From positions 265,398 through 329,397 of the forward strand of contig CAVXKK010000003.1 of the NCBI GenBank assembly GCA_963762295.1: DNA of 64,000 nt, written 5' to 3'. Position numbers and translations under genes: made by a program. The stretch comes from an uncultured Bacillaceae bacterium. Its GTDB lineage: Bacteria > Bacillota > Bacilli > Bacillales > Bacillaceae_B. This document shows, piece by piece, positions 13,893 through 43,822 of the stretch. Position 1 is the stretch's first letter. Each line of letters starts with the position of its first letter. The notes under the pieces were generated by a model. That model was not told where the DNA came from, searched no databases, and worked only from the letters and a program-made list of their open reading frames with translations.

Positions 13893-14576
13893 CTATTCCA
13901 TGCCGAACCGTTCAAGCACACTCTGATCTGTTTCTGGCAGGTCCATGCCTTCTTTCCAGATCAGCTTGCGGTCATCGGGCGTTCCAAAGTAAATGGCCTC
14001 GATTTTCACCTCGCGAATTTCTTCCTGCTCAGAAAGATCGATGAAATCATCAGCGTTTTCCAGAGCACTTGGACGAGATGCTTCTTCCTTGATCACCTGA
14101 CGCTTGCCCGTGACATAGAAATCCCCGTTACTGTTCACATCATACTTCAACGTTGAAATCCTGTACCCATCGTCTACATTCAGATGAAAAAAGATCTTCC
14201 CATCCGCCTGACTCACTTTACTGATTTCCGCGTTCTCAGTCCCGACGTTGACCACATTCCACTGGAACAGCCCCACATAAGCAAGGACGAGGCAGGCTGC
14301 GACGACAGACGTCACAAGCATCCCCTTCCAAAACGACCGCTTCTTCCCCTTCTTCCACGAGGACGCGATCCCCTTCATCACTCGGTCATCACTATTCCGG
14401 TCAACCGTCACCTTCTCCTCCACGGGCAGCCCGGCGCGCATCCGCTGAAGCTCATTCCTACACGCTTCACATTGACTCAGATGCCCTTCCACAAGGGCAC
14501 GGCTTTCCTCACTGCACACGTCATCATGATACAGGGGCAGCAGGTCTTCGATGACCCGGCATGGTACGTCCCTCAT
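13893..14576 (-). CDS. Zinc-finger (zf-HC2/ZAS) membrane anti-sigma factor
   Basis: 'CRVIEDLLPLYHD...HLSQCEAC' HxxxCxxC motif, single TM, extracellular domain. Confidence 0.9.
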   Translation of the reverse strand: MRDVPCRVIEDLLPLYHDDVCSEESRALVEGHLSQCEACRNELQRMRAGLPVEEKVTVDRNSDDRVMKGIASSWKKGKKRSFWKGMLVTSVVAACLVLAYVGLFQWNVVNVGTENAEISKVSQADGKIFFHLNVDDGYRISTLKYDVNSNGDFYVTGKRQVIKEEASRPSALENADDFIDLSEQEEIREVKIEAIYFGTPDDRKLIWKEGMDLPETDQSVLERFGME

Positions 14577-15058
14577 ACATCTTCCTCCTTCAAACGATCC
14601 TGAATTTTTTGCCGTGCCCGGTGATATGTCACCCTGGCCCAGCTTTCCGTCTTACCGAATAGCCCGCTGATGTCCCGGAAGGAAAGCTCCCCGAAAATCC
14701 GCAGGGTGAACACTTCCTTGTACGGATCTTGAAGGGAATGCAGCACTTGATGGACCCGCATCGCCTCTTCCCGGTTCTCCATAAGCCGCTCCATGACCGC
14801 GTCCCCGCTAGATTCGACCACTTCTTCCGGCACCAATCGCTTCTGTTTTGATAAATGGGTAAAGTATGTATTCTTCGCAATCTGGCACAGCCACACGCTC
14901 ATCTTGCACTGCCCCTTGAAGCCATCGATCGCCTTCAGCGCCTTGAAAAAGGTCTCCTGCGTGATCTCTTCGGCCAGCTTCTCATTGCGGCTCAAGGAAA
15001 GGATGAACGCATACACTTCCCGGAAATGCTGATCGTAAATCTTCTCAAATTCTGTCAC
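14573..15058 (-). CDS. ECF RNA polymerase sigma factor
   Basis: 'AEEITQETFFKAL', 'WLCQIAKN', region 4 'LSFRDISGLFGKTESWARVTYHRAR'; GTG start after GGGAGG. Confidence 0.93.
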   Translation of the reverse strand: MTEFEKIYDQHFREVYAFILSLSRNEKLAEEITQETFFKALKAIDGFKGQCKMSVWLCQIAKNTYFTHLSKQKRLVPEEVVESSGDAVMERLMENREEAMRVHQVLHSLQDPYKEVFTLRIFGELSFRDISGLFGKTESWARVTYHRARQKIQDRLKEEDV

Positions 15059-15256: not shown

Positions 15257-15441
15257 TTTCTACCGACTTTTTCAAATTTATTATCAACTTTAGAGATTTT
15301 ACTTCCAACTTCTCAAAATTTATTTCCAACTTTGGATTTTGGACCGTTTTCTTCTTCCAACTTCCCCTATTTATTTTCAACTACAAGCCTTTATCATCAA
15401 GTTCAATCTCTTATTACCAACTCTCTCGCATTACTTCCGAC
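15257..15441 (+). repeat. Phased 11-mer array, copy A (9 motifs, consensus TTAYTWYCRAC, spacing 21,21,21,31,20,20,20,20)
   Basis: Motifs start at 15257, 15278, 15299, 15320, 15351, 15371, 15391, 15411, 15431. Confidence 0.85.
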
Positions 15442-15542
15442 TCGCTTCTTTATTAAACCTCACATCTCACCCAAAGTATAGAAGCACCATAATCCCCACG
15501 CACCAAAAAGGCAGCCCATCCCGTGAGCTGCCTCAACACCCT

Positions 15543-16076
15543 CTAACTCTTCACCTCGTAATGCAATTCCACAAACTGATTGAACGACTGCGTCCCCTTC
15601 AGTGTAAGATCCAGTCCATGATCACCTTCCCTAAATAAAGGAATTCCCTTCCCGAGGATCACCGGCGCAACGGTAATAATAAACTCATCCACCAACCCTG
15701 CTTGGATGAACGCGTGCAGCAGTTCCCCTCCACCAACGACCCAGATATTCTTGCCGCTTCGCCCTTTTTGTTCGTCTACAAACGACCGGACATCACCATT
15801 CCGGTAGCTCACATGTTCTGTATCTTCCCAATCTGAACGGGAAAACACCACACATTCCTTCCCTTCATACGGAAATGCCTCCATCTTCTGATTCATGACC
15901 CAATCATACGTCCTCTTTCCCATCACCACTGTATCAACGGTATCGTAAAACGCGGAGAACCCATTGTCCCCCTCGCCCTCCACTTGGAAAAGCCACTCCA
16001 ATGACTCATCTTTCGTCGCGATATAGCCGTCGAGACTGCAGGCGATGAATACGACGACTTTTCGATCCTGTTTCAT
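15543..16076 (-). CDS. Dihydrofolate reductase/RibD C-terminal family protein
   Basis: 'FIACSLDGYIA', 'VMGKRTYD', 'IWVVGGGEL', 'APVILGKGIPLF'. Confidence 0.9.
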   Translation of the reverse strand: MKQDRKVVVFIACSLDGYIATKDESLEWLFQVEGEGDNGFSAFYDTVDTVVMGKRTYDWVMNQKMEAFPYEGKECVVFSRSDWEDTEHVSYRNGDVRSFVDEQKGRSGKNIWVVGGGELLHAFIQAGLVDEFIITVAPVILGKGIPLFREGDHGLDLTLKGTQSFNQFVELHYEVKS

Positions 16077-16124
16077 GCTATCTTCCTCCTTTTCATGTCC
16101 ATACATTCAGTATACGATTAAAAC

Positions 16125-41607: not shown

Positions 41608-41771
41608 TTACTTTCAACTTTGGATCATTTCCTTTCAAGTTTGACGTTTCTACTTTCAACTACGCGGATTTTATTTTCAACTTCTCTCAAAGGCTAATTC
41701 TCATCATCAACTCATTTCCTTTTTCATCAACTACCCCACTTTACTTTCAACTTTCTCCCTGTATCACCAAC
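41608..41771 (+). repeat. Phased 11-mer array, copy B (8 motifs, spacing 21,21,21,30,20,20,20)
   Basis: Motifs start at 41608, 41629, 41650, 41671, 41701, 41721, 41741, 41761. Confidence 0.85.
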
Positions 41772-41900
41772 TTCACTCAACAAAACAGCAAAAAGCACCC
41801 GCCACATCCATATGGCTGGTGCTCCTTCTACTAGTCTCTTTATGGTCGCGACGACTAGACGTACCCAGTCCCTTTTGCCGAGTTTCCAATCCTGTCTACA

Positions 41901-43637: not shown

Positions 43638-43822
43638 GTTGGTAAAAACATAGGGAACTTGGTTGTAGCGAGACGAAGTCGGTAGTAATGCATGAAAGTT
43701 GGTCATAAGTCTCCTATGTTCGTAATAGGATTTTCGTCAAAACACAGAGTTGGTAATAAAAATTCGATTCCCGGTAGAAAAATTCAAATAGTCGGTAGTA
43801 TTTTTTTGATTGTCGGTAATAA
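43638..43822 (-). repeat. Phased 11-mer array, copy C (9 motifs, minus strand, spacing 21,21,21,31,20,20,20,20)
   Basis: Plus-strand GTTGGT/GTCGGT-type cores at 43812, 43791, 43770, 43749, 43718, 43698, 43678, 43658, 43638. Confidence 0.85.

Follow-up and report, generated by a model that had tools for sequence, protein, structure and literature searches.

What reads a series of short intergenic motifs, and how did the series come to lie where it does? The question is raised by copy A (positions 15257 to 15441, + strand) of the 64,000-nt stretch of DNA that was analysed, hereafter the window. Its nine sites, 11-mers with the consensus TTAYTWYCRAC(T), start at 15257, 15278, 15299, 15320, 15351, 15371, 15391, 15411 and 15431, and the gaps between starts (21,21,21,31,20,20,20,20) divide the element into a 21-bp half of four sites and a 20-bp half of five, joined by a 31-bp linker. 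This layout, the core of the original prediction, was found again when the positions were re-read in the sequence, and so were two further copies, each with compound gaps of its own. Copy B (41608 to 41771, + strand) has eight sites with gaps 21,21,21,30,20,20,20 and is of the TTACTTTCAAC sub-type; copy C (43638 to 43822, - strand) is inverted relative to A and B, has nine sites with gaps 21,21,21,31,20,20,20,20 and is of the TTACCGAC sub-type.

Results

Copy A and its setting

Copy A lies between two ORFs that are outside the element and were named by eye: upstream a dihydrofolate reductase/RibD-C-like frame of 187 aa (15543 to 16106, - strand), and downstream an ECF sigma-factor-like frame of 161 aa (14573 to 15058, - strand). 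A hairpin with a T-run (15505 to 15532, - strand) closes the dihydrofolate-reductase-like gene and, judged by its shape, is a putative terminator; copy A begins ~60 bp behind it. A similar hairpin and T-run, again presumed to be a terminator, lies beside copy B (41790 to 41823, - strand). A perfect DnaA-box word (TTATCCACA on the + strand) occurs ~50 bp from copy C, at 43883-43875 (- strand) of the window; it is kept in the genomes G047 and G048 and may be due to chance.

The spacers had been described as unrelated to each other. This is correct for the 20-bp half, where their identity is that of random sequence (0.26-0.32 vs 0.26 expected), but not for the 21-bp half, where they are ~50% alike regardless of position or copy (0.32 expected), so that the motif there covers most of the 21-mer. 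Between loci the likeness is not position-specific (0.51 vs 0.50) and thus leaves no trace of recent copying from the gene-linked array described below. Likewise, all sites had been placed on one face of the DNA, which applies to the 21-bp half but not to the 20-bp half: relative to a 10.5-bp turn, simple arithmetic gives a drift of 4 bp, about 140 degrees, over four 20-bp steps. A known RNA family, one of the alternatives named with the original prediction, was not found, the Rfam scan of the whole window giving zero matches at gathering score; a tRNA scan of the window gave no match either. A coding heptad repeat was ruled out, as no reading frame is kept through steps of 31 and 20 bp and a stop lies in the G-rich frame.

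A dispersed family of intergenic arrays

A weight matrix was built from 24 sites of the three window copies and its hits were chained over the allowed gaps, a chain being 4 or more sites. This genome scan, proposed with the original prediction, gave 11 chains in the 3.76-Mb assembly that holds the window (G000, 77% complete) and 0 in two local shuffles. Nine of the 11 arrays follow the full 21,21,21,30/31,20,20,20 plan, or that plan with one weak site; a twelfth copy, in decay, came to light at C3:769k in a motif-free scan. All arrays are intergenic, mostly at most about 80 bp from a terminator-like hairpin, and among the 11 copies, whose neighbours were named by eye, both orientations relative to flanking genes occur and no common flanks were found. 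An iteron origin or plasmid centromere was ruled out by these 11 chromosomal positions between unrelated genes (again as named by eye). The G-rich strand is on the leading strand in 9/11 copies. The 21-bp pitch pattern matched 19/24 other genomes of the genus, and the exact compound pattern 4/48 genomes.

In the complete genomes G047 and G048 all copies found of the copy A family are in the origin-proximal half (0.29-1.14 and 3.45-4.41 Mb). A general replichore role was dropped: the GGCYGGAT arrays of another genome, G019, reach 2.7-2.9 Mb, and origin-proximal placement is therefore not treated as general. The motif-free scan of G000 also returned a second dispersed 20/21-bp family, TCGCAAAT/TCGCAAGT, at six loci outside the window (C3:87043, 954239, 1020044, 1087185, 1562865 and 1572634). 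No partner gene for the TCGCAAAT family was found in G000 or in the complete G047 and G048; a NERD gene with the TCGCAAAT/TCGCAAGT word upstream exists in a Niallia record (L346).

NERD genes beside arrays

No cognate protein had been seen in the window. This is true, and a candidate lies ~810 kb away on the same contig. One member of the family (C3:1090.9-1091.06k) is located between purA and a gene for a predicted NERD-Zn-ribbon-winged-helix nuclease (C3:1091160-1092131), ~100 bp before its start, and the strand that faces the gene is the one that reads GTYGRWARTAA in copy A (its - strand). This is the only PF08378 gene found in the assembly, at its 77% completeness. Its product matches PF08378 with 81 bits (cut-off 22.1) and no other family, and its nearest named homologue, from Rossellomorea marisflavi (L316), is 60% identical, which would put the window within that group or close to it. 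The motif at this gene is that of copy C; the motif of copy B is that found at the NERD allele of G046 and G047. Judged by sequence, the NERD nuclease is the likely candidate for the partner that the window lacks.

The pairing of gene and array was examined across the genus in 40 NERD matches with frames of 320-380 aa, taken in list order among 150 listed of 292, with a motif-free detector and arrays counted within 1.5 kb of the gene. An array was present beside 37/40 of these long genes, directly upstream in 34, vs 0/26 short NERD genes, 0/30 DinB genes and 0 in shuffles. A candidate for the co-occurring protein that the original prediction proposed to look for is a NERD protein, whose gene adjoins arrays across Bacillus relatives. 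All four long genes among the top 30 matches had an array, as did 46/54 strong matches of the protein in 20 genomes (20/21-bp arrays; partly the same genes as the 37). In other families an adjacent array accompanied 21/25 genes of this kind (class A), and in records named outside Rossellomorea, where 48 of 75 loci were taken, the count was 41/48, with some overlap with the previous set; there the same word often flanks the NERD gene on both sides. The system is common: of 151 genomes sampled from across the order, 109 match the class A profile. NERD matches number 1 to 12 per genome, with many unrelated motifs, and B. subtilis, used as a control, had none. The class A genes sit singly beside housekeeping loci (for example purA and tRNAs), often in the same slot across species; on mobile replicons we found one homologue in 72,556 plasmids, and 50,697 phages had none. 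In the genomes surveyed there are many NERD fragments and pseudogenes. No published link between NERD genes and repeats was found in the open-access literature.

Several individual loci deserve mention. In G047 the purA-linked NERD gene (L057, C1:4380552-4381463) is broken near its 3' end, leaving 303 aa and no wing, and the arrays persist. Very long 20- or 21-bp arrays lie on one or both sides of the NERD genes at L295 (G172), L350, L363, L367, L370 and L373, the array of L295 having 69 or more units.

An AGGAWTT-N-GAAW element occurs at a fixed distance, 50-60 bp upstream of class A NERD starts, in 43/145 genes (for example L048:1330-1365), vs 2-9 in shuffles, 4/30 DinB genes and 1/27 genes of the second class described below. 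We presume a resemblance to the sigma-H promoter consensus; if the element is such a promoter, expression of class A NERD genes would be stationary-phase.

A predicted nuclease with a winged helix

The structure model of the protein encoded next to purA in G000 (pLDDT 93) has two parts that match known folds. Its N-terminal residues ~4-190 match PD-(D/E)XK folds, first Can2 (Z 7.5, rmsd 5.7, 145 aligned) and second VC1899 (Z 7.4, rmsd 3.2, 123 aligned), and its C-terminal residues 260-323 match winged helices (AntR, Z 7.1, rmsd 2.3, 61 aligned); Z-scores of 6-7.5 are in a common, middling range, and a Foldseek search with the model gave no match with E below 0.001. In 38 class A proteins E46, D79, E92, K94, Q126, four Cys and H262 are invariant, and the catalytic residues tested in the NERD domain of ZwsA, in the portion of that work available to us, share the E-D-ExK spacing of the class A tetrad. 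The class A protein is therefore likely to be a PD-(D/E)XK nuclease with a Zn ribbon and a winged helix, cutting being predicted from the model.

Such a protein could instead be a toxic nuclease, held inactive on the arrays (as operator and decoys) and freed when phage or DNA damage destroys them, a defence or addiction function that we think improbable. Its best fold matches do include Can2/Card1, McrC and NucC, ZwsA employs a NERD domain in defence according to the same partial source, and the Rpn nucleases, of related fold, were initially taken to promote recombination and have since been interpreted as antiphage toxins (PMC5350276, PMC10400941, as far as their accessible text goes); fast turnover of specificity, documented below, would also fit an arms race. 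However, PADLOC gave no match for the class A protein. NCBIfam gave only partial NERD-domain matches far below cut-off, which leaves room for an uncatalogued system. The single genes beside purA and tRNAs, often in the same slot across species, also speak against defence, which moreover leaves the gain of arrays at new slots and the tandem duplication of blocks unexplained.

Protein clades and their words

In a quick tree of 48 proteins (one 56-aa pseudogene product was left out) the motif follows the clade, each clade having its own word; the G000 protein belongs to a 16-member clade with GTYGAWAA/GTCGGTA words. Two NERD genes of 44-45% identity, one in G044 and one in G001, also have the compound spacing upstream of them, but with a different word. 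Because linkage alone would give such a match of clade and word, we sought a part of the protein that tracks the motif beyond overall similarity, in 114 proteins drawn from 180 full-length matches (130 with an array, dereplicated at 85%). With overall similarity allowed for, the window of residues most strongly tied to motif similarity was 292-300, the predicted recognition helix, a modest signal (r 0.146, reached by 0/300 label permutations, which ignore kinship); residues 127-135 ranked second. Below 40% identity 1/300 permutations reached the value of 292-300, and below 35% this segment was not the top one (51/300). An Arg in the second position of this helix is associated with a GCA in the motif (24/30 vs 7/84), a rule spotted by eye for which independent pairs gave 5.2 same and 0 opposite of 9 (p about 0.06).

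The presence of arrays also goes with that of the gene. GACGCAW arrays were found in 7/7 genomes with the cognate gene (12-106 matches) vs 4/15 without it, and GGCYGGAT arrays in 4/4 vs 3/18; related genomes in such counts are not independent of one another. Both kinds of array (22 and 15 matches) are present in G059, where we could find no class A gene, which indicates that arrays can outlast the gene. Altogether, sequence-specific binding of the repeats by the NERD protein appears highly probable.

An action of the arrays as transcripts (a protein sponge, a Rho loading site or a guide array) seems very remote to us. The spacings are near multiples of the DNA turn, the arrays occur in both orientations relative to flanking genes and most lie behind terminators, the window has no Rfam match, and the part of the protein that co-varies is in the winged helix. 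For an RNA function speak the C-rich composition of one array strand, the 52-nt repeats of B. coagulans reported to be transcribed (PMC8625621, in its accessible part) and the NERD domain of ZwsA, which cuts RNA according to the portion of that work at hand.

Conservation and turnover of arrays

Most copies of G000 are old and common to G047 and G048, both of which keep copy A. When orthologous copies were compared among three close relatives, differences were found at 127/2422 motif positions (5.2%) vs 172/1461 spacer positions (11.8%); by part, divergence is 17.8% in 20-bp spacers, 5.5% in 21-bp spacers and 10.6-14.3% in flanks. These values support the platform for a binding protein, with motif and geometry kept, that was proposed at the outset, and the constraint on motifs at dispersed copies is as compatible with selection for a host function as it is with gene conversion.

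At the same slots arrays are also exchanged. G046 and G047 carry another NERD allele (56-60% identity), and their arrays at purA and C3:1490k have the word of that allele in the same plan, within flanks that are 92-95% identical and with the neighbouring hairpin kept. In G046 a TATTTGCGA-type array takes the place of copy A, and the slots of copies B and C are occupied by other genes and have no array. The pyrG-linked array has an IS3-like element in G047 (L056:2130-3528), and an IS-like insert with a 7-bp duplication landed independently in that of G048 (L066), both named by eye. These insertions, together with the different or missing arrays at the window slots of G046, make it doubtful that single copies, as chromosome-organising sites of the kind suggested originally, are essential.

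A host function in architecture or regulation is the main rival to mobility. In that case the protein would be a nucleoid organiser, or a roadblock behind terminators that also binds its own operator, and arrays would be kept by selection and moved only by ordinary recombination and horizontal transfer. The positions of dispersed orthologous motifs, conserved twice as well as spacers, argue for it, as do the age of the copies and the change of motif in the same unit positions at C3:1490k and purA of G046 and G047, as if co-evolved with the NERD allele; Subirana and Messeguer proposed the polymerisation of a protein on such repeats (PMC8161180, in the text available). A purely architectural role has no need for an invariant nuclease centre, though, and it sits poorly with copies that tolerate IS insertion and replacement, with 1 to 12 NERD matches per genome, many unrelated motifs and none in B. 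subtilis, and with new arrays at empty slots. We consider it rather unlikely.

Gains and losses were followed at several levels. Reads and contigs of 4 runs over copy A contained no empty site, and only run X18 differed, its copy A being short by two units (42 bp). Unit numbers vary between copies, and blocks of 180-345 bp with an array are tandemly duplicated beside several NERD genes. To compare G019 with G045 we selected ten loci on account of their apparent discordance. The other genome had an empty site at five of them, in two cases with a small gene that travels with the array, and shared the array at three; at one locus the array was replaced, and the last was not found. The small genes present or absent together with an array (L448:1000-1620 in G019; L442:590-1250) are glyoxalase/VOC-like and cupin-like by eye. 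Locus L458 is filled in three genomes and empty in four, including the two most distant relatives, and the array was thus gained there. At L450 the site is empty in four genomes and filled by a common allele in two, whereas the array of G016 has the same word but different flanks and is independent.

At the three filled/empty comparisons examined in detail we found no shared ends and no target duplication, so classical transposition is unsupported; one of the three sites has a 17-bp flanking repeat, which is seen at another locus too. The early suggestion of a relic of a non-autonomous mobile element is close to our best reading. A classical MITE was ruled out, the 11 copies and the three comparisons having no conserved ends. 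A short dispersed repeat, CCAAGGTCCGTCCCTC (L442, L444, L445 and others), lies on both sides of one array-bearing insert and also at other intergenic sites.

The dispersed arrays might also be mere scars or passengers, if the mobile unit were array plus gene and nothing acted in trans. The common NERD fragments and pseudogenes point in this direction, and the C3:769k array of G000 occupies a slot where many other species have a NERD gene. Yet in G000, G047 and G048 that slot has a purA-type or TCGCAA-type motif, whereas the gene that usually occupies it goes with the GACGCA motif, single genomes have a dozen arrays per gene, and left-overs should decay evenly whereas the motifs are constrained. 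We rate this explanation as a shade less probable even than defence.

A second class with 52-nt repeats

Weak matches of the G000 protein form a second class of about 300 aa, class B. In the genus set 19/19 full-length class B genes have their own 52-nt repeat just behind the stop (set aside were 1 locus without a recovered frame and 2 proteins labelled NERD-HRDC by eye), and across the order 26/30 do, vs 1/56 in the control. Many of the 52-nt units split into 21 + 31, the two spacings of copy A. By analogy with class A and its 20-21-bp arrays, the class B protein would bind and spread the 52-nt (21+31) repeats.

Discussion

The arrays belong to a known class of repeats, and the original view, in which they were not recognised as a described Bacillus repeat, is not supported. 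Subirana and Messeguer (2021; PMC8161180, as far as its accessible text goes) described Bacillus tandem repeats whose size is fixed at either 20-21 or 52 nt and which contain short conserved words; two thirds of their catalogue of Bacillus tandem repeats consists of such repeats, constant in length and variable in sequence. The arrays share the features that define the 20-21-nt group in the available text of that paper (non-coding, at least 4 units, a 20-21-nt pitch, a short word and a variable rest), and also its lineage-specific families, several per genome, with partial conservation between strains. In that same text no partner protein is named, no 20- or 21-nt repeat is tabled for B. marisflavi and the compound 21/31/20 geometry was not found described. 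What is new is this geometry as a clade trait, the association of class B with 52-nt repeats, the swapping of arrays at slots, the constraint on dispersed motifs and the polarity of empty sites.

Among known systems, REP/REPIN-RAYT is one of the closest. There too, in the parts of PMC5581495 and PMC8266576 available to us, a chromosomal, plasmid-rare nuclease gene is flanked by a cognate repeat that is also dispersed, and enzyme and repeat co-evolve. RAYT, however, is according to these sources an HUH tyrosine transposase acting on single-stranded palindromes, unlike the PD-(D/E)XK, Zn-ribbon and winged-helix protein predicted here; where REP elements have a palindrome with a conserved tetranucleotide foot, the present motifs, as read from the sequence, are direct, non-palindromic 11-13-mers without hairpins, and there are several NERD paralogues per genome. 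By the features that define REP/RAYT and MITEs the gene-array system is neither, yet it would seem to work like REP/RAYT. The Rpn/YhgA-like nucleases (PF04754) offer another likeness, a stand-alone nuclease proposed to promote RecA-independent recombination by priming and template switching (accessible text of PMC5350276 and PMC10400941). RpnA differs in its little sequence specificity and in that those texts describe no cognate array for it, and the NERD protein matches PF08378 only; the history of Rpn can also serve as a warning that a 'recombination-promoting' reading may turn out to be defence.

Direct repeats with a pitch of about 20-22 bp that are read by a helix-turn-helix-type domain are known from iteron arrays and from the ends of Tn7, Mu and IS21, and TnsA joins a PD-(D/E)XK domain to a winged helix. 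Here, by contrast, the sites examined have no replicon, paired inverted ends, DDE transposase or target duplication. As for CRISPR and TIGR arrays, which would have a fixed repeat and acquired unique spacers beside Cas or Tas genes, there is no Rfam match, the neighbours are not Cas-like by eye, the 7-8-nt spacers are too short to trace, and the comparison of orthologous copies in close relatives shows that species inherit them.

We have described an array family and its geometry, its pairing with NERD genes across the order, motifs that track protein clades and the turnover of arrays at slots. To account for these we propose, as a reading that we hold to be reasonably though not strongly probable, that the arrays are non-autonomous and are bound, and likely spread, by the NERD nuclease. 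One NERD protomer would read the word of each 20-21-bp unit through the recognition helix of its winged helix, and 8-9 protomers would line up on the array into a phased filament or wrap. The intact PD-(D/E)XK centre could then nick or cut nearby DNA, and repair by template switching or illegitimate recombination would add or remove units and duplicate blocks. The same repair might move arrays into open slots behind terminators, together with variable flanks and in some cases a small gene. The NERD gene itself would be a domesticated chromosomal resident, as RAYT is for REPINs, and arrays would outlive it.

A more speculative extension, which we put forward tentatively, is that NERD nucleases are repeat-writing enzymes. 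The length of a unit (20-21 bp in class A, 21+31 = 52 bp in class B) would follow from their footprint and the word from their recognition helix, and their cuts would duplicate and move arrays. Arrays would then be handles that carry small accessory genes into slots behind terminators. If this is true, REP/RAYT would have a double-stranded counterpart in the NERD nucleases, reprogrammable and spanning the whole family, and both Bacillus satellite sizes would have one cause.

The constant-size Bacillus repeats had no known partner, and a single protein family, in two classes, now maps onto both sizes. A single gene and a DNA of 190 bp are enough to put the question posed by the arrays to a direct experimental test. 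Natural pairs of protein and motif, of which there are dozens, provide a ready recognition code for a compact nuclease of about 320 aa, which may need the array to assemble, and the arrays are the probable substrate for a large group of genes whose sole annotation is 'nuclease-related domain protein'.
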